Counted from the stretch's first letter, positions 14,903 to 26,107 are shown. The stretch is 38,860 bases of DNA from a virus (IMGVR_UViG_2713896899_000004), one strand, 5' to 3'. Numbers and translations: made by a program. Notes: generated from the sequence alone by a model not told the origin.

Positions 14903-16165
14903 TTACTTTACATAGTCGCCCAGTTTTAATATTTCGCGCTTATATTCTTTAACCATGTCACAGGATTCAATGTAAATTCGATGTAAAAGACTGCCGTTAT
15001 CTTTATTTTCATTTATCTTAATTAGTGCTAATTTATATTCATAGTCATCAAATGCCACAATTAAATGGTGGCCTGGGATTATATCTTCGTCACTCTTAAA
15101 GTATATATCTTCAAGTATGTAATCTAGTTGATTAGATTTTCTTTTCTCGATGTAATCTTCAGCCATAGCTATTACATCATTCCTGTCATTTAACCTGTTT
15201 TTTTCGGAAGGCACATCTTCGTAATGTTGCACGATTGAACAACCAATAAGGCGTGGGATGTAAACGTCAAAATGAGTAACTCTATCATTCGCGGTTTTAA
15301 GTAGTTCCTCAAAGTAGTTTCTTACATGTAAAGGCAACTTCTCAAAGTAATCATTAATTATAGGAGAACAAGGAGTTTTATAATTCATAAGAACCGACGG
15401 TACGAGCTTTGGGTGTCGAAACATCCAGTCCCTTTTAACGTCCGATGGAACATAATAACTTTTAATGATATTATCAAAATAATTTATCATTCGAGATTTG
15501 AATATTTTGTTGAATCTAAGGTTTATGAATGTATCCAGATAAGGCATATTTGAATAAGCATCATCAAAAAATATTTCATCATTGAAAAAATCATATTTAT
15601 TCAATAAACAACACAGTTTTTCCGAATTAATATGTTCACAATAATCGATTTTTAATCCAAAGATAGCAATGATCAACTTCATCTGAGGTGGGATTTTAAA
15701 AATTAATTGTGACACATACGCTCTTTTTTCCTTGAGACATTCCCCATCAATATAAAATGAACCATCCACATACTCAAATATATTAATAATATGCTTCACA
15801 TACTGTATTACCTCATGCTGTCTTACCAATGGGTAATATAGTCTATGTAACTCATCGCTGTTTAAATTAATTTTGTGTTTATCGATAATTTGTTTTGCAA
15901 GAAGACATAACTCATCATGTTGATTTAATAAGGAATCAAACCATTGTTTAAATGCACTCTTTCGCATTTCGAACAATGATTCAGTTGTTAATTGAAGGGC
16001 TGAAAAAGCTGCTTTTGCACTTTTTCTCGCTTCGTAGGCATTCCATGCTGTTGCTATAAAAGCAAATGCTGTAGCCAATGTTCCAACAGTTTGACCATTT
16101 AAAACAACCCAATCCCAAAAAATGACGGTGAGCAGTAGTATAATAATGAAAATTAAAAAAGGCAT
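14903..16165 (-). CDS. AT-rich membrane-anchored protein of unknown function (candidate defence / abortive-infection cargo)
   Basis: 420-aa ORF on the opposite strand from almost all other genes; N-terminal hydrophobic helices then a large Asn/Lys/Tyr/Phe/Ile-rich soluble domain; strongly AT-rich; own terminator. Confidence 0.55.
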   Translation of the reverse strand: MPFLIFIIILLLTVIFWDWVVLNGQTVGTLATAFAFIATAWNAYEARKSAKAAFSALQLTTESLFEMRKSAFKQWFDSLLNQHDELCLLAKQIIDKHKINLNSDELHRLYYPLVRQHEVIQYVKHIINIFEYVDGSFYIDGECLKEKRAYVSQLIFKIPPQMKLIIAIFGLKIDYCEHINSEKLCCLLNKYDFFNDEIFFDDAYSNMPYLDTFINLRFNKIFKSRMINYFDNIIKSYYVPSDVKRDWMFRHPKLVPSVLMNYKTPCSPIINDYFEKLPLHVRNYFEELLKTANDRVTHFDVYIPRLIGCSIVQHYEDVPSEKNRLNDRNDVIAMAEDYIEKRKSNQLDYILEDIYFKSDEDIIPGHHLIVAFDDYEYKLALIKINENKDNGSLLHRIYIESCDMVKEYKREILKLGDYVK

Positions 16166-16796: not shown

Positions 16797-17900
16797 ATGA
16801 AAAATAGCTTTGACAGAGCGCGCGCTGCGGAGAACACCTCAAAAGAGGCGATTGAGTATCTCGAAAGAGCATCTCAAATGCAGGCCGTTATGATCTCGCA
16901 GGTTAGCAATGACATGAGATTCTCGGACGCTTTCATGTTATTCACTCGCTTATCTCTGCTGATAACCAGACGTCGGCCAGAGATCGCTGTTCATTGTATT
17001 TTGATACATGTTTTGCCGCACATTGCCGATGTAAAAGTAAGTGACATTAATAGGTTCATGGTGAACCAGCTGGTCAACCCACTAATACTGGATGGCAAAA
17101 TTGTTATGGGCCGCCGCGTTTTCTCTCTGATGAAGCAGTTCCTTAGCTGGTGCGCCTTCCAGGGGATGATAGACGTGTCACCGTTAAACGATATGTCACT
17201 AAACAAAGTTGCCGGTGGCGCAAAGCCCACACCTCGCGAGCGGAAGCTGACCGACGCAGAGGTATGGGTGTTCTGGAATATATGGGACTACTTCAATGTG
17301 TGCGCTGGTACAAAATGGGCGGCCAGGCTGTGTCTTGTATCAGCAAGACGACCTGACGAAGTACTGCGGGCTAAAAAAAGTGAGTTCAATCTTAAGCGTG
17401 GAGTTTGGAATCAAGGCAAGAGAAACAAGTCAGCACGTGAGCATTCGCTGCCTTTAAGCACATTAATGCGCACATGCATTGAAGAGTTGTTCGAATACGG
17501 TAAAGACAGCCAGTGGCTCGTGCCTTCGAATAAAAAAATCGGGAAAGACCTTCCTATGTCTAAAGTGGCAATAGCCCAGGCATTACGTCGTATTCTGGAA
17601 CGACCAGAACTGATGGAGCTTGAGCCATTTACACCCCGAGATTTGCGCCGTACTGCGCGTAGTTACTTCCCAGCATTAGGCATAAGCCAGGAGGTATCAC
17701 GCAAAATCATGAACCACAGTCTTGAGGGGATAGATCGGGTATACGATCGACACGATTATATGGATGAGATGCGAGACGCCTTAGAAAGTTTCTCGACGTA
17801 CATCGCATCAATCGTAGAGCAACCGGATTTAGACGAAATTGACCACAAATTCAAGGGAGATCGTCTATCGACAGAGCTTATTCGTGTAAATTTTTCATAG
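16797..17900 (+). CDS. Tyrosine recombinase / integrase (P4-like C-terminal catalytic region)
   Basis: C-terminal FTPRDLRRTARS ... NHSLEG ... VYDRHDYMDEMR matches the Arg/His/Tyr catalytic pattern of P4-type integrases; N-terminus atypical. Confidence 0.65.
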   Translation: MKNSFDRARAAENTSKEAIEYLERASQMQAVMISQVSNDMRFSDAFMLFTRLSLLITRRRPEIAVHCILIHVLPHIADVKVSDINRFMVNQLVNPLILDGKIVMGRRVFSLMKQFLSWCAFQGMIDVSPLNDMSLNKVAGGAKPTPRERKLTDAEVWVFWNIWDYFNVCAGTKWAARLCLVSARRPDEVLRAKKSEFNLKRGVWNQGKRNKSAREHSLPLSTLMRTCIEELFEYGKDSQWLVPSNKKIGKDLPMSKVAIAQALRRILERPELMELEPFTPRDLRRTARSYFPALGISQEVSRKIMNHSLEGIDRVYDRHDYMDEMRDALESFSTYIASIVEQPDLDEIDHKFKGDRLSTELIRVNFS

Positions 17901-18281
17901 AGACTTTATGGCCTCAACAACCTTTTGTGATGCGCCTTTCTCTTTACCGAATCGCTCGTTATATGCAGCAAGAACCTGTTTTTCGTCCTCGTTAAGAGGA
18001 GCGGTGCCTTCTTTGTATAAAAATGCTGCGAGTTCAGGTTGGCGTTCTTCCAGCACCATCATCATAAGACGACTTGGCTCAATACCCAGCGCCAGCGCCA
18101 ACGGACGAACCTTATCGATAGGCAAAGGAATTTTGCCACTTTTAATTAAAGAAAGGTTGTTGGCATTTTTATAACCAATAAGTCTGGCTATTTGGGCCTG
18201 ACTCATAGGTGAGGATTCAATCAGCCCTGCGATAAAAGCAGCATAGCGACTTTCTATAAATTCAATCTTGTTGTCAGACAT
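17895..18281 (-). CDS. HTH (XRE/Cro-CI type) transcriptional regulator, candidate repressor
   Basis: N-terminal MSQAQIARLIGYKNANNLSLIKSG helix-turn-helix; divergent from downstream plus-strand genes; no protease domain (128 aa). Confidence 0.6.
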   Translation of the reverse strand: MSDNKIEFIESRYAAFIAGLIESSPMSQAQIARLIGYKNANNLSLIKSGKIPLPIDKVRPLALALGIEPSRLMMMVLEERQPELAAFLYKEGTAPLNEDEKQVLAAYNERFGKEKGASQKVVEAIKSL

Positions 18282-18532
18282 TGTTACAACCTTTGCGCGT
18301 TTAATTCTCTATGGTAAGTGCTTACCGATATTACATCAAAGGTTAGGGTTGTAAAGCTATTATCATTTTTTTCGGCAGGCACTTGTAAGACCGAGCAAAG
18401 GTCCATGCATGGAGAAAAACTAGCCCAAAATAGGTAAGAAAATTAACTTGCATCTGATATAGATGTATTCAGTATTGATACAAATTTTAGTAGTATTCCT
18501 TACCATAGTATAAGTTAGAATGGATTGATTGA
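18282..18532. promoter_or_regulatory. Divergent control region between repressor and plus-strand operon, with GGTAAG/CTTACC dyads
   Basis: 251-bp intergenic region containing palindrome ggtaag-tg-cttacc (18314-18327) and further ggtaag / ataagtta half-sites. Confidence 0.45.
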
Positions 18533-18745
18533 ATGAAAACCACTATTTCCAGCCTAATCGCTCTTGAGATCGGACACGTACAGAAATTAGCTGATGAGTG
18601 TGTAGCTGACATCCTCACCGATCTACCGAATGAGCAGATTCAGGTTGGTGTGAATGACACAACTGGCTTTATATTCGAACTTAACAACAAACGCTTCACG
18701 CTTCTCAATACCGGCTCCGGGTCTTTAGCCGTCAGAATCTGTTAA
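18533..18745 (+). CDS. Hypothetical small protein (possible Cro-like partner by position)
   Basis: 70-aa ORF divergent from the HTH regulator; weak RBS. Confidence 0.35.
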   Translation: MKTTISSLIALEIGHVQKLADECVADILTDLPNEQIQVGVNDTTGFIFELNNKRFTLLNTGSGSLAVRIC

Positions 18746-18843
18746 CCCCTCTTCTCCCTGCGCGAATGGCTTAGTTCCCTGTTCGCGCAGTGCTACATTA
18801 AACACACTAGTAAATAATTTGTTTTCATAACAAAGGATTAGCC

Positions 18844-20952
18844 ATGTCTAAAAAACGTTCCATCAAAGAGGTTCAGGACTTCCGTGACAGTGTAAAACGA
18901 GTAGTCGCTCTCCTTTCAGGTAAAAACATCCCTGTTGCAGAACGAGGGGACGACGCTTATGTACGCTATAACGATGATGGAGAGCCAATTCTCGTAAACA
19001 TCCCATCAATCCCGGATAACGCAACACCGGCATTGATGAATGCTGTGCGCGGATTTCTCGATCATGAGGTTGCTCACATTTTGTTTACCGATATTCGTGT
19101 GTCCAACAAAATGAGAGAAAAAGGACGCGTTCCTTCCTGGTCGCTATGGAATGCCTTAGAAGACGTGTTCATCGAGCGAAAAATGGGGCAGGTCTTTAAC
19201 GGAACAAGACGTAATCTGATGGCAACTCAGCGCCTTATAATCGAAAAAGTCTTTAAACCAAAGGCTTCAGAGGCTATTGCTTATTGTGGCAAAGATCAGC
19301 GCGCGCTTTTTCTAAACTTCTTTCTCTGTCCGGTTGTAAGAGCCTGGGATGGCCAAGCACCGTTCGTAGATTTCATGGATGAATATTGGCCTGTCATTGA
19401 GAAACCAATTTCATTATTAAAAGAACATGGTATCGATGTGGCCGTGCGTAACATGTCTTGCACCGAGGATTGTGTAAAGGTGGCTGCGACCATAGCTAAG
19501 CTCCTCAAAGACACTGAAAGTGAAAGCAAAGGTAAGGAGTCAGCTCCGGGAAAAACTTCTGATCCTTCAGACGCTGACCAGACGGATGCCTCTGGAGAAA
19601 ACAATGAAGACAACGAAGATCATGAGACACCCTCAGAGATAGATAATCACAAATCTATCAAATCAGAATCACATAGTAAGCACAAGCATGATAATAACGA
19701 CAGTGATGATTCAGATAATTCTGAATCATCAGAAACAATATTCGATGATACAGAAAATGATAAAGAGGTATCAGATTCTGATGCTTCTGATAACGCGGCG
19801 TCAGAATCATTAACCGCTGACCACGAAAAAAGAAAAACGACAGAAGACGGCTCTTCAGATATTCCAACTCCGTCAAAAATGAGTCTGGAAGAGGCTTTAG
19901 AGGAGCTGGATAGCATAGAAGATGAAGTCGGAGGCATGACAGAAGATGCTCTATCCGAAACGATTAAAAGCGAGTTAACAGAAAGCTCGAAAAGCGAATA
20001 CAGGCCATACAATCGCTCATACGACTTCATCGGCTCGATTGATCAGGCAGAAGCCCATATCAAACGGCTTATTAAAACATTCTCCGATATTGATTTAGGA
20101 GGATATCCAATCAGCCGCTATCGCATCGTTCCTGAAGGCAACCAGCTCTTCGACAAATATATTGAAAAGCATCTTTCGTCAGGTGTTTCGTCGACGCTAG
20201 CAAAAGACCTGGAACGTGCAATAGCAAGCAGAAACAGAGTTCAGTTTATACCGGGCCAGCGTCGGGGGCGCATTCATGGCTCTAGTATCTACAGATTAGC
20301 AATGAATGATGATCGCGTGTTTCGTAAAAAAGAGGAATCTAAAGCCGTTAACGCCTGTGTTCAACAAGTGATTGATTTATCGGGTTCAATGAGTGGCGAA
20401 ACGATAAAACTAGCTCTTGCAAGTGCATATACCATCGCCGATGCTCTTGATCGAATAAATGTTCCCAACATTATCACCGGCTTCACTACATTTGGCAGTC
20501 ATCTGGCAGCGATAGAACTTAAGGCTATCAAGTATGAGTTCTCTCGCTTTGAATCTTTAATGCTACCTATCATCAAAAATTGGAATGAAAAAGCAAATTC
20601 TCGCGAAGTTCGCTCACGTATGGGGTGCGTAGGCTACACATTCCCACTTCTTAATAACGTGGATGGTGAAAGCATAGCCAGCCTTGCATCGTTATTTTCC
20701 GGTCGCATGGAGGACAGGAAGATCATGCTTGTTCTGAGCGATGGCGAGCCGCTGGCTGTTGGGAGAGGTTTTGACGCTCATTTGCGTTCGGTTGCGAAGC
20801 AAATTGAAACGCAGACTGACATTGATTTGATGGCAATTGGCATAATGACTGACGCACCGGAGAGATTTTACTCAAATCATGCCCTGGTAACGAGCGTTGA
20901 TAGTCTTGGTTCATCTGTAGTTACTGAACTATCTCGTATCATTTTGAAGTGA
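18844..20952 (+). CDS. von Willebrand factor A (vWA) domain protein with acidic Ser/Asp-rich linker (CobT-like)
   Basis: MIDAS motif DLSGSMSGE and downstream VLSDGEP; long acidic low-complexity segment in the middle; RBS aaaggatt upstream. Confidence 0.6.
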   Translation: MSKKRSIKEVQDFRDSVKRVVALLSGKNIPVAERGDDAYVRYNDDGEPILVNIPSIPDNATPALMNAVRGFLDHEVAHILFTDIRVSNKMREKGRVPSWSLWNALEDVFIERKMGQVFNGTRRNLMATQRLIIEKVFKPKASEAIAYCGKDQRALFLNFFLCPVVRAWDGQAPFVDFMDEYWPVIEKPISLLKEHGIDVAVRNMSCTEDCVKVAATIAKLLKDTESESKGKESAPGKTSDPSDADQTDASGENNEDNEDHETPSEIDNHKSIKSESHSKHKHDNNDSDDSDNSESSETIFDDTENDKEVSDSDASDNAASESLTADHEKRKTTEDGSSDIPTPSKMSLEEALEELDSIEDEVGGMTEDALSETIKSELTESSKSEYRPYNRSYDFIGSIDQAEAHIKRLIKTFSDIDLGGYPISRYRIVPEGNQLFDKYIEKHLSSGVSSTLAKDLERAIASRNRVQFIPGQRRGRIHGSSIYRLAMNDDRVFRKKEESKAVNACVQQVIDLSGSMSGETIKLALASAYTIADALDRINVPNIITGFTTFGSHLAAIELKAIKYEFSRFESLMLPIIKNWNEKANSREVRSRMGCVGYTFPLLNNVDGESIASLASLFSGRMEDRKIMLVLSDGEPLAVGRGFDAHLRSVAKQIETQTDIDLMAIGIMTDAPERFYSNHALVTSVDSLGSSVVTELSRIILK

Positions 20953-20967
20953 ATAAAACAGCCTTAA

Positions 20968-20986
20968 CGATAAGTAACTACTTATG
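20968..20986. promoter_or_regulatory. Dyad gataagta-ac-tacttat upstream of the AAA+ ATPase gene
   Basis: 7-bp arms ataagta / tacttat are exact reverse complements. Confidence 0.45.
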
Positions 20987-21047
20987 ATGGTTAATGATAT
21001 ATTTATATAAGAAGTTGAACGCTCATTAGAGAACAAAGGAAAAACGC

Positions 21048-22283
21048 ATGACTACTACTGCACTGCAAAATGAAAAAAATCCTTCTGATTACCTTGTTTG
21101 CAAGTGGTGCGGAAAATCATTTCACTATTTTAAGTCCCATGTAGCCTATGGTAATTGCGAGGGCATTCCTGAGTCGGTAAAAGATGCCGATCCTGACACC
21201 GTACTGAAAATGTACACAACGCAGTTTCCAGATGAACCAACGCTATCGAAAAAGGCACTTGATGCAATTCAAGCTAAACGTGCCGAGCAAAAAAGCGAAA
21301 TGGCCAAATCTTCTGGTGTGACCAGTAGCCCAGGCTACATAGGCACAGTTGAGTACAAGACAGATCTGGTCGCAGCTCACGAACTGCTAGACGTAACGGT
21401 GGAAGAACTCGGAACAAAACGTGGGACGCCGCTCATGGTTAGCGTCAACGTCAATACGCCGTTTCCAGAGTTCGTTCCTGAAGTGAAGAAGGGCTACGTA
21501 TATGGCGACTTCGAACTGATCAAAGACATTTTCATGATGCTTGAACTTGGCATACCAGGCTATTTGTGGGGACATGCAGGAACAGGCAAATCGTCATTGC
21601 CTACACAGCTATGTGCTTTGCTCAATCGTCCGTTGATCCGTGCCCAACATACAGCATCAATGGAAGAAGCTCATGTTACGGGTCAAATTCTGGCGCGTGA
21701 TGGCTCTACGTATTTCGAGCCAGGCTTGCTTGCGCTCGCAATGAAGCATGGCTGGGTTTACCTCGCGGATGAATACGACTTTGCGTTTCCACAAATTCTT
21801 GGCGTGTATCAGCCAGTGCTGGAAGGTGAAGCGTTGGTCATCAAAGAGGCGACACCAGAATGGCGTCGCATTACTCCGCATAAACGGTTTGCTTTTATTG
21901 GCACTGGCAACACGAACGGATCTGGTGATGAAACCGGCTTGTACCAGGGTACAAACATCCAGAACGCCGCGAACTTTTCGCGTTTTGGCATCGTTTCGAA
22001 TGTGAAATACATGAGCAAAGAGGCAGAGATCAACATGTTGATAAATGCCGGCATTGTGGATGAGTACGCTGAAAAGATGGTTAAGTTTGCCGGTATCGTT
22101 CGCGATGGTTACGAAGAACACAATATCAGCCAACCGATTGGGCCTCGTGAGCTTTTGTTGTCGGCCAAGATTGGAATGATGCGAGGCGACTTTGTGACAG
22201 GTATTGAGCGTTCTTTCATTAACAAACTCCCTTCAGCTTCTGCGCAAGCGGCACGTGAAGTTGTTCAAAAAATATTTGGTTAA
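21048..22283 (+). CDS. AAA+ ATPase (MoxR/CobS-like) with N-terminal Cys/His zinc-finger-like motif
   Basis: Walker A GHAGTGKSS, Walker B VYLADEYDFA; N-terminal CKWCGKSFHYFKSH...C; paired with the upstream vWA protein. Confidence 0.6.
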   Translation: MTTTALQNEKNPSDYLVCKWCGKSFHYFKSHVAYGNCEGIPESVKDADPDTVLKMYTTQFPDEPTLSKKALDAIQAKRAEQKSEMAKSSGVTSSPGYIGTVEYKTDLVAAHELLDVTVEELGTKRGTPLMVSVNVNTPFPEFVPEVKKGYVYGDFELIKDIFMMLELGIPGYLWGHAGTGKSSLPTQLCALLNRPLIRAQHTASMEEAHVTGQILARDGSTYFEPGLLALAMKHGWVYLADEYDFAFPQILGVYQPVLEGEALVIKEATPEWRRITPHKRFAFIGTGNTNGSGDETGLYQGTNIQNAANFSRFGIVSNVKYMSKEAEINMLINAGIVDEYAEKMVKFAGIVRDGYEEHNISQPIGPRELLLSAKIGMMRGDFVTGIERSFINKLPSASAQAAREVVQKIFG

Positions 22284-22463
22284 TCGTGCGTAAAGGATGT
22301 TTCGGCTCTCTTATCGCTGCTTCTGAAACTGGTAAGGCTTGTCTGGTGTGCCCAGACAAGCCCGATTGTCACCAATCAGCAAAAGAAGTTGCGATTTCGA
22401 TGCACGGGAAGTTCGTAGGCTTCCCAAATGACAAAATCAAAAAAACCAGAAAGGTAAAAACAC

Positions 22464-25400
22464 ATGAAGGCACTGATGGTTCGAACTGACTTCTCACTTG
22501 GGGAGTCGGCTCTAAAAGCAGAAAACGCGGTGAAGATTGCCAGAGAAGCTGGCTACACCGCTGTAATTTCAGCAGATAGCATGAATATTGCGAGTGTTAT
22601 TCCACTACAACGTGCCGCTGGTGACGACATGGCGGTTATTTGTGGTGTGAAACTAAACATCGTTGATGATCCCACATACGAGCACCGGGCTAAACTTGCT
22701 AAAGAATCTAAGGGATGTATGGAATCATTAGAGCGAGGACGTAACTACTCGTTTACCGCTCTAATTAAAAATGAGCAAGGATATCGCGACATCTGCGAAC
22801 TAATGACGGTGGCCAACACACGAGAACAGTTCTACTTTGTACCGCGTCTCTCGCTCGAACAGTTGGTTTCTACATATGCCAAAGGCAACATCATCCTGCT
22901 CACTTCCGACATCGGTAGCGTGTTCCAACGCAACGATTTTGCAAAAATCATAAGCACACTGATTACAGCGGGTGGAAAAGACAACTTCTATAGTGTGGTT
23001 TATCCGCACCCTACCCCATTCTACGACCAGATTAACGTCCGGGCGATGAAAGTCGCCAGCGCACTGAAAATAGAGCCAGTAGCGTTCTATCCCGCTTATT
23101 ACGAATCGATCGACGATGCAGACATTAAAGACATTGCGCACATGGTTACGAACAACATCAAAATCGACCAGCCGCATCGTCTGCGTATCCCCCACCAGCG
23201 AGATAACGCCGTCAATGGTCGCCGCCATCTCCTTGAGGCGCTGAAAGCCTTCTCCGTTCGCATGGATGTGCCGGTAACAGCTGCAATGGCCTCAACAACG
23301 CAGGATACCATTATCGATGCCTGCACATGGCGCTGGCATGAATTGCCACCAGCACTGCCAAAGATGGCAGACGACGAGCCTGCAACGCTGATGAAACTGG
23401 CCGTTGCTGGGCTGCGTAAACGTCTTACCACAAAAGAGTTTGGCTACACACCACCGGCTTCTGAGAACAGGATTTATGTTGAACGGCTTAAGTACGAAAT
23501 GGACACGCTGACTCGCCTGGGATTTTGTGGTTACTTCCTGATGGTACGCGATCTGATGAATCACAGCCGTGAAACTGGCATTCCTGTCGGGCCTGGTCGT
23601 GGTTCCTCTGCCGGTTCTCTGGTGGCGTGGTGCATAGGCATAACCAACGTCGACCCAATCCGTCACGGTCTTCTGTTTGAGCGTTTCATCAACCCTGAGC
23701 GTCTCGACTTGCCGGATGCGGACTTGGACTTCAGCCAGGCACGTCGCCATGAGGTGATCGAGTATCTGAATGAACGCTACGGCGAAGATTACGTTGCAGG
23801 CATTCCGAACTTCACCTACCTGGGCGCAGCCTCTGCACTACGTGACACCGCTCGTATTTATGGTGTGGAGTCCGCAGATATGGCGGTATCAAAAGAACTG
23901 AAGAACGTCGAGGATGATAGCCTTCCATTGGAAGAACTGCGCGAACAACTGGCAAGTCTCGACAAATACGCAACAAAATATCCTGATGCATTCAATGCAG
24001 CCTGCAAGTTACAAAGCCTTATGCGTGGCTTTGGTAGACATGCGGCAGGGATGATCGTAGCAGGTGTTCCTCTGACAGAACGCACACCGGTTGAGCGCCG
24101 TGGTGACGCGCGTTGTATCGCATTTGACAAGCGTTACTGCGAGGCTATGGGCCTAATTAAGCTGGACGTGCTTGGCCTGGCAACTCTCGATTTGCTCGAT
24201 AGTGCAAAACGCTACATAAAAGAGAACACAGGTGAAGATATCAATCTTGATGCCATTTCTCTTGAGGATCGCAAGGTGCTGGATGGTTTTGCTGCTGGGT
24301 ACACTCAAGGTGTTTTCCAGCTTGAATCAGGCCCAATGCGCAAGCTGCTTAAAGATTTAGGTGGTGGAATTGAGCCAATGAGCTTTAAAACGGTTGTTGC
24401 TACGACTGCGCTCTTCCGGCCGGGGCCAATTCAGTCAGGCATGTTGGATGATTATGTTTCTGTCGCCAAAGGCTTTATGACGCCGGAATCATTACACCCC
24501 GTTCTTGATGAACTTACCGCAGAAACAAATGGCGTGATTCTCTATCAGGAACAGACGATGAACGCGACTCGATTGCTTGCTGGCTTCACAATGGCTGAAG
24601 CTGACGGTGTTCGTAAAGCGATCGGCAAAAAAGACATGGAAAAAATGAAGAGCATGGGCGAGAAGTTCATCGTTCAGGCTCAAGCTGGCTGGATAGACGT
24701 TGAGCTGGAAGATGGCACTACACAGCGCATTCACCGTGCGGAACATTTTAAATGCGAAGACGGAACTCTGAAAACTGTCGAAGAGGCACTTGAGTACGGC
24801 GCAAAACTACCTATAAACGCAGTACGCGTTACAGCGTCACATCCAGGGCTATCAGAGATGAAAGCGAAGGAGATCTGGACCGCATTCGAAAAGAATGGTG
24901 CCTACCAGTTCAACAAATCACACTCTGTTGCTTACTCCTTAATCAGTTATCAATCTATGTGGTTGAAAACTCATTATCCCGCAGAGTTTTTCGCTGCTGC
25001 TCTCACTATTCTTGGCGAAGATAAACACCAGGGGCTGGTTAAAGATGCGCTGACCTATGGTATTCGCGTATTGCCACCAGACGTTAACGTGTCATCTAAC
25101 CGAATCGAGATCCGCACGCTTGAAGATGGCAGCCAGGTGCTGTATGCGCCCTTCTCTGCTGTGAAAGGTTGTTCTGAGAATGGCTGCCAGGCCATCATGA
25201 GAGCGCGAGAAAAAGTTGGCGGCAAATTCGAGTCACTGGCGCAATTCGAAGAAGCTGTCGAGAAACGTGCCTGTAATAGTCGAGTGTGCGAATCACTGCA
25301 AAAAGTAGGGGCGTTTGCATCCATCGAGCCAGGTAGTCTGCCAGCAACTGATCCAGAGCGTCTCCGCGACCAAGCTGAATTGATGGGAAACCTTGTCATA

Positions 25401-25982
25401 GACGCAGTTAAAGCCTCACGTCCGTTTGAGATGAACCCCAAACGTTCGGCTGAGATTAACGTGCTCATGACACGGATGGCGGCTGAAATGGGATTAGGTG
25501 ATGAACTAATCCGCCCTAGCATTGGCATTAAGCCGAAAATCATGATCATTCTGGACAATGCAAACGGCAATGATGCTCGAACCGGTTACTTTATGGAGAA
25601 CGGATACGACGATTTTAAGGCCAAGCTGTTGACGGCTGGGGATTTGCGCATGGGCGATCTCTATGTCACAGGCGTTTGCAAAAAGGTGAAAGACAAAGAA
25701 AAGGACTACACCAAAGACGAGATCGGCCAGTTCACCGACTTTATGCGTGAAGAGATCAATCTGGTGCGCCCGACCTATGTGCTGACGTGTGGCAGCCGGG
25801 CAACGGCATTGTTTAACAACAAAAACAAGCCATCCGATTTGGTCGGCAGGAAGGAGTACCTTCCAGACCTTGACGTTACTGTCTTTTACGGGTTTAACCC
25901 CAACATTCTTTACTTCAGACCTGAAGAGGGAGAACGACTAGAAGCGATATTAGCCGACGTAGCAGAAACCATTAAGACGTGA
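22464..25982 (+). CDS. dnaE: DNA polymerase III alpha subunit (family C, DnaE type)
   Basis: 1172 aa; GPGRGSSAGSLVAWCIGITNVDPI ... FERFINPERLDLPDADLDF matches the DnaE palm/catalytic region; PHP-like N-terminus. Confidence 0.8.
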   Translation: MKALMVRTDFSLGESALKAENAVKIAREAGYTAVISADSMNIASVIPLQRAAGDDMAVICGVKLNIVDDPTYEHRAKLAKESKGCMESLERGRNYSFTALIKNEQGYRDICELMTVANTREQFYFVPRLSLEQLVSTYAKGNIILLTSDIGSVFQRNDFAKIISTLITAGGKDNFYSVVYPHPTPFYDQINVRAMKVASALKIEPVAFYPAYYESIDDADIKDIAHMVTNNIKIDQPHRLRIPHQRDNAVNGRRHLLEALKAFSVRMDVPVTAAMASTTQDTIIDACTWRWHELPPALPKMADDEPATLMKLAVAGLRKRLTTKEFGYTPPASENRIYVERLKYEMDTLTRLGFCGYFLMVRDLMNHSRETGIPVGPGRGSSAGSLVAWCIGITNVDPIRHGLLFERFINPERLDLPDADLDFSQARRHEVIEYLNERYGEDYVAGIPNFTYLGAASALRDTARIYGVESADMAVSKELKNVEDDSLPLEELREQLASLDKYATKYPDAFNAACKLQSLMRGFGRHAAGMIVAGVPLTERTPVERRGDARCIAFDKRYCEAMGLIKLDVLGLATLDLLDSAKRYIKENTGEDINLDAISLEDRKVLDGFAAGYTQGVFQLESGPMRKLLKDLGGGIEPMSFKTVVATTALFRPGPIQSGMLDDYVSVAKGFMTPESLHPVLDELTAETNGVILYQEQTMNATRLLAGFTMAEADGVRKAIGKKDMEKMKSMGEKFIVQAQAGWIDVELEDGTTQRIHRAEHFKCEDGTLKTVEEALEYGAKLPINAVRVTASHPGLSEMKAKEIWTAFEKNGAYQFNKSHSVAYSLISYQSMWLKTHYPAEFFAAALTILGEDKHQGLVKDALTYGIRVLPPDVNVSSNRIEIRTLEDGSQVLYAPFSAVKGCSENGCQAIMRAREKVGGKFESLAQFEEAVEKRACNSRVCESLQKVGAFASIEPGSLPATDPERLRDQAELMGNLVIDAVKASRPFEMNPKRSAEINVLMTRMAAEMGLGDELIRPSIGIKPKIMIILDNANGNDARTGYFMENGYDDFKAKLLTAGDLRMGDLYVTGVCKKVKDKEKDYTKDEIGQFTDFMREEINLVRPTYVLTCGSRATALFNNKNKPSDLVGRKEYLPDLDVTVFYGFNPNILYFRPEEGERLEAILADVAETIKT

Positions 25983-25988
25983 TCCCAT

Positions 25989-26014
25989 AAACATGGCCTC
26001 TATGGCCATGTTTT
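25989..26014 (+). terminator. Rho-independent terminator after dnaE
   Basis: Perfect 10-bp stem aaacatggcc / ggccatgttt with loop tctat, followed by TTTT. Confidence 0.6.
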
Positions 26015-26107
26015 CCCTTATCCCCTCATATCCCCTATCCTCGAACTCCTTGCCTTATCATCACAATGATATAATCAATATAAAATGATAAGTAAAAAGG
26101 AAAGCAC

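Follow-up and report, generated by a model that had tools for sequence, protein, structure and literature searches.

The window analysed here is a 38,860-nt stretch of the viral genome IMGVR_UViG_2713896899_000004, and its subject is a pair of adjacent plus-strand genes that encode a 702-aa protein and a 411-aa ATPase. A sequence-only reading of the window had described the first as a vWA-domain protein with a MIDAS (metal-ion-dependent adhesion site) and the second as a MoxR/CobS-like AAA+ ATPase, and both open reading frames (ORFs) lie exactly where it had placed them. What this reading overlooked is that the pair is the already-described viral cobST cluster, and that the N-terminal domain (N-domain) of the CobT-like protein is zincin-like, with an HExxH motif. 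The features of the two genes are as follows.

18844-20952, plus strand: viral-type CobT (702 aa), ATG start; assigned by Pfam, PHROG and structure comparison
18844-19533 (aa 1-230), plus strand: CobT N-domain with a putative M48-like zincin fold
19063-19077, plus strand: HExxH motif H74-E75-V-A-H78, read from the sequence
19540-19854 (aa 233-337), plus strand: core of the acidic Ser/Asp/Glu-rich disordered linker, from composition and a predicted local distance difference test score (pLDDT) below 50
20239-20349 (aa 466-502), plus strand: shaft-equivalent segment, aligned to Brucella CobT Q373-R413
20317-20946 (aa 492-701), plus strand: VWA domain, with the MIDAS DxSxS at 20374-20388
21048-22283, plus strand: viral-type CobS AAA+ ATPase (411 aa), ATG start; assigned by AAA_5 and PHROG 249
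21099-21140, plus strand: zinc-finger-like motif C18-x2-C21-x4-H26-x4-H31 in the N-terminal extension of CobS

Profile searches agree with the assignment of a MIDAS-type vWA protein and an AAA+ ATPase. The 702-aa protein matches the Pfam family CobT_C, which represents the VWA domain, at 3e-82 over aa 492-701, and the Pfam family CobT, which represents the N-domain, at 1e-27 over aa 9-294. It also matches PHROG 1576 end to end (5e-299), and its nearest solved structure by sequence is Brucella CobT (9uka, 7e-17). The MIDAS consists of DxSxS (D511/S513/S515) together with N605 and D633. These residues align to D422/S424/S426/N518/D546 of Brucella CobT, with all five conserved, and the nearest folds to that of the VWA domain are ring-docking MIDAS domains, those of Rea1/MDN1 and NorD. 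The long acidic linker that had been described from its Ser/Asp-rich sequence is borne out by composition, with 51 D/E and 43 S/T among the 166 residues 225-390, and by the AlphaFold model, in which residues 233-337 are disordered (pLDDT <50). Within the shaft, G471, G475 and F493 are nearly invariant in an alignment of 65 sequences; position 482 is Leu in 63 of them and Ile in the window protein.

For the 411-aa protein, the profile matches are AAA_5 (1.7e-15) and PHROG 249 (3e-106), which is labelled 'porphyrin biosynthesis'. Brucella CobS (9ujv) is matched at 4e-26 over aa 142-411, followed by midasin, CbbQ and NorQ. An alignment of six viral CobS sequences with two cellular ones, from Brucellaceae and Methylorubrum, shows no variation in Walker A (G175-S182, with G175/G178/G180/K181), Walker B (D241/E242), sensor-1 (N288), the arginine finger (R312) and sensor-2 (R367). 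These positions map onto the residues described for Brucella CobS (bioRxiv 10.64898/2026.07.21.739949). Judged by these residues, the protein should be a catalytically competent MoxR-class AAA+ ATPase, for which a hexameric ring is expected. Compared with close relatives, its AAA+ core has a ratio of nonsynonymous to synonymous substitution rates (dN/dS) of 0.03 and its N-terminal extension one of 0.12.

The N-terminal Cys/His motif that had been noted in the ATPase is present and is kept in 80 of 80 related viral-contig loci. Among more distant relatives, Pseudomonas phage nickie shares it, Stenotrophomonas phage BUCTxx99 has an altered spacing (C-x4-C) and Rhizobium phage RHEph10 a degenerate version, and it is absent from cyanophage, ICP2-like, CRP-810 and cellular CobS. 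The motif region gave no Pfam match. The CobS_N domain, which is present in cellular CobS, was not detected in the window CobS by the Pfam search. The surfaces through which the two proteins would meet are partly conserved: in the alignments, CobT R69/D73 correspond to the Brucella interface residues R76/D80, and CobS E404/Q407/K408 to E308/Q311/R312. The earlier suggestion of a chaperone or remodelling pair stands, as related pairs consist of a motor plus an adaptor in every characterised case, and the ATP-hydrolysis and MIDAS residues are intact here.

In the model of the CobT N-domain (pLDDT 92), H74-E75-x-x-H78 lies on a helix spanning residues 62-81. The best fold matches are zincins of the M48 and M56 families, a likeness at the level of the fold only; neither the single sequence nor a profile of the N-domain gave a sequence match to peptidase families in Pfam or the PDB. 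The motif itself is strongly kept. It is found in 148 of the 150 best among 1141 representative clusters (50% identity) that match the N-domain, and the two exceptions are a fragment that does not include the region and one real loss. It is likewise present in 76 of 76 related viral-contig loci. In the 65-sequence alignment D73, H74, E106, E111, G120 and N124 are invariant, and E75, H78 and D107 have one exception each. The N-domain with its HExxH is under purifying selection: dN/dS against close relatives is 0.11, compared with 0.38 for the linker and 0.08 for the shaft plus VWA domain.

Cellular CobT differs at this point. The proteins of Brucellaceae and Methylorubrum have SMALR at the position aligned with HExxH (DSMALR in genuine CobT), so that all three catalytic positions are lost; hhalign gives the same HExxH/SMALR register at a probability of only 36%. 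The N-termini of these two cellular CobT genes were recovered from contigs. The top 120 cellular CobT database matches are all truncated gene calls. In both assemblies (Brucellaceae L166, 2024-6380; Methylorubrum L167, 1832-6329) cobT is frameshifted, which explains why the database holds only truncated products of the cellular genes.

A separate observation concerns CobT aa 94-140 (approximately 19123-19263), where a profile of the N-domain gave a borderline PDB match to the anti-CRISPR protein AcrIIA26 (9zq6_B, E 0.007). The match spans the conserved N-x-x-E-D-x-F-I-E segment and is probably due to chance.

Nucleotide comparison of a 4-kb region identifies the window as part of an SSU5-like phage-plasmid. 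The region is 99.9% identical to the E. coli plasmid NZ_CP048306 and 97.7% identical to Escherichia phage Cyrano, and shares 74% identity with Salmonella phage SSU5 across the 59% that aligns. It matched 456 plasmid records from Escherichia, Enterobacter, Yersinia, Salmonella and other genera.

By the literature and general knowledge, and not from a search of our own, E. coli does not possess the corrin-ring pathway. Salmonella uses an anaerobic route that is independent of CobN. Establishing B12 synthesis in E. coli took about 30 heterologous genes, including cobN, cobS and cobT (PMC6249242). On the 99.9%-identical 110-kb plasmid, neither CobN nor cob/cbi genes occur among the annotated genes of the PLSDB table, which is incomplete, and the window contains no other ORF of CobN size. 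The plasmid encodes the class Ia ribonucleotide reductase NrdAB, which is B12-independent, and the rationale of supplying B12 to a class II reductase is therefore inapplicable. The proteins also score far below the equivalog cut-offs, with 87.2 bits against 558.55 for CobS (TIGR01650) and 67.5 bits against 759.05 for CobT (TIGR01651). Given these scores, the missing CobN and corrin genes, the host and the class Ia reductase, we rejected a genuine cobaltochelatase for this element, and the cobalamin label that such genes usually carry is very probably wrong for an E. coli host.

A broader version of the chelatase idea treats viral CobST as an auxiliary cobaltochelatase, which would hijack a CobN (or ChlH-type) subunit of the host and so increase cobalamin synthesis, ribonucleotide reduction that depends on B12 being one possible use. 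It has been proposed for the viral cluster (PMC8651126) and for cyanophage cobS (PMC2984593), it draws on the clear CobS/CobT homology, which includes shaft and MIDAS, and for hosts that possess CobN (Rhizobium, Pseudomonas, haloarchaea, some cyanobacteria) it is plausible. We nevertheless regard it as highly improbable, since the evidence from the E. coli element just described is joined by two features of the proteins themselves: purifying selection keeps the HExxH, which genuine CobT does not have, and no CobS_N domain was detected in the window CobS.

In the GenBank record of Cyrano, the corresponding genes CYRAN_47 and CYRAN_48 are named 'dimethylbenzimidazole phosphoribosyltransferase' and 'cobalamin synthetase'. 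These names are an annotation error, caused by a name collision with the unrelated CobT and CobS enzymes of the Salmonella nomenclature.

As the sequence-only reading had noted, the pair is placed between a repressor and dnaE. The local order is integrase, helix-turn-helix (HTH) repressor on the minus strand, 70-aa ORF, 702-aa protein, 411-aa protein, 67-aa Cys-rich ORF, DnaE, UvsY-like protein and a gp32-like single-stranded DNA-binding protein. The features that flank the pair are listed here.

17895-18281, minus strand: HTH repressor-like regulator (weak Pfam HTH_19/HTH_37; PHROG 8 'transcriptional regulator', 7e-12)
18282-18532, no strand: divergent intergenic region, putative promoter/operator
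18533-18745, plus strand: 70-aa ORF, the first of the plus-strand block (PHROG 2627, 6e-41)
22286-22489, plus strand: 67-aa Cys-rich ORF (PHROG 6337, 3e-45; N-terminal part of PHROG 3616)
22464-25982, plus strand: DnaE-type polymerase with a C-terminal family-4 uracil-DNA-glycosylase (UDG)-like domain, downstream in the same same-strand block

The diversity of relatives was sampled by tblastn against GenBank phages and by inspecting the contigs of the 50% representatives; two scans for related loci yielded SSU5-type relatives almost exclusively. Nickie, RHEph10, BUCTxx99 and the metagenomic contigs L172, L175 and L176 repeat, at only 30-40% identity and as far as the contigs extend, the order DnaB, DnaG, ligase, divergent HTH or RepC gene, an ORF of about 60-70 aa, CobT, CobS, a sigma70_r2-like or Cys-rich protein and a DnaE-UDG-like polymerase. 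The order continues with gp32, exonuclease and RecA in the window and in the longest of the contigs, and two shorter metagenomic contigs (L171, L173/L174) show the CobT-CobS part only.

The same architecture, an HExxH-bearing N-domain fused to a VWA domain and accompanied by a CobS-like ATPase, also occurs in P-SSM7, Saratov-12 and CRP-810. In the T4-like cyanophage P-SSM7, gp46 on one side and gp45/gp44/gp62 on the other enclose a "peptidase" gene and cobS. This "peptidase" has an N-domain homologous to that of the window protein (hhalign 95.5%), and its sequence shows HEVGH, a linker rich in acidic residues and, as its MIDAS motif, DWSGS. In the ICP2-like podovirus Saratov-12, the genes that come after CobT and CobS encode primase, DnaB helicase and a polymerase of family A. 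The P-SSM7 and Saratov-12 lineages are unrelated, and are independent cases of the pair within a replication cluster. Three lineages with C-, B- and A-family replicases thus carry the pair in the replication module and not in the structural block.

The role in replication that had been suggested from the position next to dnaE therefore has to be divided. Co-location with replication genes holds across three lineages, whereas a role specific to DnaE does not: 1185 phage records contain a DnaE-like polymerase and 33 the CobT N-domain (CobS is found in 519, mostly of cyanophages), and the pairs of cyanophages and ICP2-like phages stand in replication clusters of the T4 type and with a family-A polymerase. 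In P-SSM7, the only cyanophage inspected, the replisome is of the T4 type, and the locus contains no DnaE. A DnaE-specific accessory factor was accordingly rejected as a general rule.

The gene order is also where a structural role for the pair has to be considered. Acidianus two-tailed virus encodes a MoxR/VWA pair, p618/p892. By analogy with it, a function in virion assembly was proposed for a pair in group 2.2 jumbo phages (PMC7824862) whose architecture, a metallopeptidase-VWA fusion with an adjacent AAA+ protein, is the one found here. In this scenario, the pair would act as a chaperone and protease that assembles head or tail and trims structural proteins. Yet the pair is found among early or replication genes in the SSU5 type, nickie, RHEph10, BUCTxx99, P-SSM7 and Saratov-12, and in the 110-kb record the structural block occupies approximately 37-62 kb and the pair 14-18 kb, about 20-48 kb apart. 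We therefore consider virion assembly quite unlikely.

Like the replisome assembly that the sequence-only reading had also suggested, host takeover and anti-defence are conjectures for the pair. In such a role, a host protein (perhaps a nucleoid, replisome or defence factor) would be bound by the adaptor and inactivated by motor and zincin, early in infection or induction. The pair follows the 70-aa leader ORF at the head of a same-strand block beside the repressor-controlled region, its HExxH is intact and its hosts are diverse (enterobacteria, cyanobacteria, vibrios and haloarchaea), all of which would suit such a role. On the other side, no known defence or anti-defence model in PADLOC is matched, the HExxH is lost in some lineages and no host target is indicated, so that we hold this explanation, too, to be rather improbable. 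A known defence or anti-defence system was rejected: the only PADLOC match, to DrmE at 16 bits, falls on the low-complexity linker and has no meaning.

The third alternative is that the pair is a metal-centre maturation factor, which would insert or repair a metal cofactor, like NorQD, which brings Fe into NorB, or like CoxDE and CobSTN. Characterised MoxR/VWA relatives mostly mature metal centres (bioRxiv 10.64898/2026.07.21.739949), NorD has the fold nearest to that of the VWA domain, and NorQ and CbbQ are among the matches of the ATPase. The element moreover encodes two candidate clients, namely NrdB with its di-iron site and the metal-binding PHP domain of DnaE. However, no metalloenzyme partner is common to all lineages, the inspected cyanophage and ICP2-like loci show no DnaE, most DnaE phages do not carry the pair, and the retention of HExxH would be unexplained. 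This makes metal-centre maturation unlikely.

Taken together, we propose with moderate confidence that the pair is an ATP-driven motor-adaptor remodeller, which acts on a replication-phase client without being specific to DnaE, is possibly proteolytic, and is not a chelatase in an E. coli host. From the strong homology we infer that the phage proteins form a complex with the architecture of CobS6-CobT. Here, the CobT N-domain would dock on the small subdomain of CobS, and the shaft would enter the pore of the ring. The CobS6 ring would hydrolyse ATP and pass force via the shaft, while the MIDAS of the VWA domain grips a partner protein. A client held by the VWA/MIDAS and the N-domain would be remodelled in this way. 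It may also be cleaved by the HExxH-bearing, zincin-like N-domain, because viral CobT keeps the motif that genuine CobT has lost. The client could be a host or a phage protein. Gene order suggests that it is acted on during genome replication, since the pair lies in a same-strand block with replication genes, directly 3' of the repressor-controlled divergent region. Support for such a remodeller comes from Iyer et al. 2021, who independently read a phage pair as a MoxR-vWA chaperone with a fused metallopeptidase (PMC7824862).

A bolder version, which is conceivable but which we consider unlikely, is that viral CobST is a split AAA+ protease or remodeller of a new design, with the peptidase placed on the VWA adaptor and not on the ATPase. 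In this case, the MIDAS would capture a specific replication-phase protein from host or phage, which the CobS ring would unfold or reposition via the shaft for cleavage. Cellular CobST would then be a derivative with a dead peptidase and CobN as its client.

Several points weigh against the motor-adaptor remodeller proposed above. The HExxH is lost in two DnaE-linked phage lineages, nickie (DSEISK) and BUCTxx99 (DREVST), which means that proteolysis is not essential to the conserved core function. E106 and E111, the glutamates considered for a third zinc ligand, persist without HExxH, including in cellular CobT, and are therefore not specific evidence for a zinc site. Viral CobS does not have the C-terminal helix that forms part of the CobT_N interface in Brucella. 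The synteny within the SSU5/nickie/RHEph10 group is inherited, and hence counts as one observation and not as independent evidence. More generally, gene position indicates shared timing, not shared function.

Further features of the locus concern its regulation and its variable parts. The HTH repressor gene is divergent from the block that carries cobT and cobS; in relatives, its slot is taken by RepC (L175 and RHEph10) or by an HTH protein (L176). A perfect 10-nt inverted repeat, CTATGGTAAG / CTTACCATAG, at 18309-18318 and 18499-18508 flanks the divergent region and could be a pair of operator sites. An ORF of 57-76 aa lies directly 5' of CobT in L171-L176, L158 and L159, with weak mutual sequence similarity. 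Between the 70-aa ORF and cobT, a GC-rich hairpin, CUGCGCGAA...UUCGCGCAG, spans 18758-18790. It has no U-tract and a fold z-score of -2.3; possible roles are those of an attenuator, a processing site or an element that stabilises the RNA.

The two genes are separated by 95 nt on the same strand, and no terminator-like site was predicted in this gap. The sole plus-strand terminator-like site in 18745-25982 is weak and lies inside cobS (21546-21559). As the promoter and terminator scan found nothing exceeding shuffled expectation, the operon structure is deduced from gene order only.

Downstream, the 67-aa ORF overlaps the start of dnaE by 26 nt and has cysteines at C5, C19, C22 and C28. Its motif GC[FY]G...C..C...C is common to the 165-180-aa proteins of PHROG 3616 that occupy the same slot in nickie and L172, and the ORF looks like a shortened version of these proteins. 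In other lineages, the slot is filled by a sigma70 region-2-like protein of about 215 aa. The UDG-like domain of DnaE spans aa 1053-1168 (TIGR00758, 2.8e-7); the DnaE-UDG fusion is annotated in RHEph10 and was found in L172 (PF03167). The polymerase of L176 is interrupted by an HNH/NUMOD endonuclease gene, which separates the catalytic part from the HHH_6/UDG part. Cyrano (OV696614, L001) carries a hicAB toxin-antitoxin insertion at 20320-21168, between dnaE and the UvsY-like gene, where the window has only a 125-nt gap (25983-26107). Elsewhere in the window, GC content falls to 0.31 at 15001-16000, with surroundings of about 0.45, over a 420-aa ORF on the minus strand (14903-16165). This ORF is hypothetical in the near-identical plasmid and is probably a recently acquired accessory gene.

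The question of what the pair does reaches well beyond this element. The cobS gene and its partner are core genes of marine T4-like cyanophages, and cobS/cobT are met again in pelagiphages, vibriophages and haloarchaeal viruses, as well as in the SSU5-type phage-plasmids (pHCM2, pMT1 and relatives), which are widespread in the clinic. Viromics routinely tallies viral cobS/cobT as B12 "auxiliary metabolic genes". If the pair is a replication-phase remodeller that plays no role in B12 synthesis, as our results point to for enterobacterial hosts, many ecological inferences from viral cobS/cobT counts would be wrong, and a widespread phage function would await discovery. In the E. coli phage-plasmid the usual explanation is excluded, which makes it a tractable system in which to look for the client.

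The closest structural reference is the Brucella complex. In Brucella, CobS forms a hexameric ring, and CobT consists of an N-domain resembling M48C peptidases, some 90 residues of disordered linker, a shaft, which goes into the ring pore, and a VWA/MIDAS domain; the catalytic subunit CobN is bound between both CobT domains (bioRxiv 10.64898/2026.07.21.739949). With CobS and CobT of Brucella melitensis (9ujv, 9uka), the window pair shares the AAA+ core with every catalytic residue, the domain order of CobT, all five MIDAS residues and part of the interface between the CobS small subdomain and CobT_N, at identities of about 26-28% for CobS and 17% for the CobT N-domain. In contrast to the intact HExxH of the window protein, the N-domain of genuine CobT is a catalytically dead M48C-like fold. 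Where cellular CobS has CobS_N, the window CobS has an N-terminal extension of 140 aa that carries a C2H2-like motif, and it does not have the C-terminal alpha10 tail of Brucella CobS. Gene context differs as well. The cellular cobS-cobT genes (L166, L167) adjoin BolA and a DnaJ-domain gene, and not cobN, whereas the window pair adjoins replication genes.

Other adaptors of this class differ more strongly. Those of NorQ-NorD (9qh6, 9qh8, 9qhd), CbbQ-CbbO and RavA-ViaA have neither a zincin N-domain nor such an acidic linker, and they act on defined enzymes of the cell (NorB, Rubisco). The eukaryotic Midasin/Rea1, which functions in ribosome biogenesis, is one giant polypeptide, and its likeness to the pair is one of fold and mechanism class only.

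Among viruses, a CobT/CobS pair was noted in ICP2 in 2011 (ORF41/42, PMC3037004), and cobS was recognised as a cyanophage core gene (PMC3037559). A widespread viral cobST cluster was reported by Liu et al. 2021, who suggested that host CobN is hijacked by it (PMC8651126). The MoxR-vWA chaperone pair of phages that Iyer et al. 2021 presented has an N-terminal metallopeptidase on the vWA protein, and a role in virion assembly was proposed for it (PMC7824862). Our literature search found no experimental test of viral cobST function. The pair of Iyer et al. has the same architecture as the window pair and was given the same reading of a chaperone and a co-chaperone with a zincin; it comes from group 2.2 jumbo phages and was linked to virion assembly, whereas the window and two other lineages place the pair in the replication module. 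The window pair belongs to the viral cobST cluster, together with ICP2 ORF41/42, cyanophage cobS with its 'peptidase', and PHROGs 1576, 249 and 459. Within this cluster, the C2H2-like finger of CobS is limited to part of the DnaE-bearing siphophage group of about 110 kb, and the published reading of cobST as acting in cobalamin synthesis via host CobN is at odds with an E. coli phage-plasmid. The kind of system is already known, and the window pair is a member of the described viral cobST cluster.

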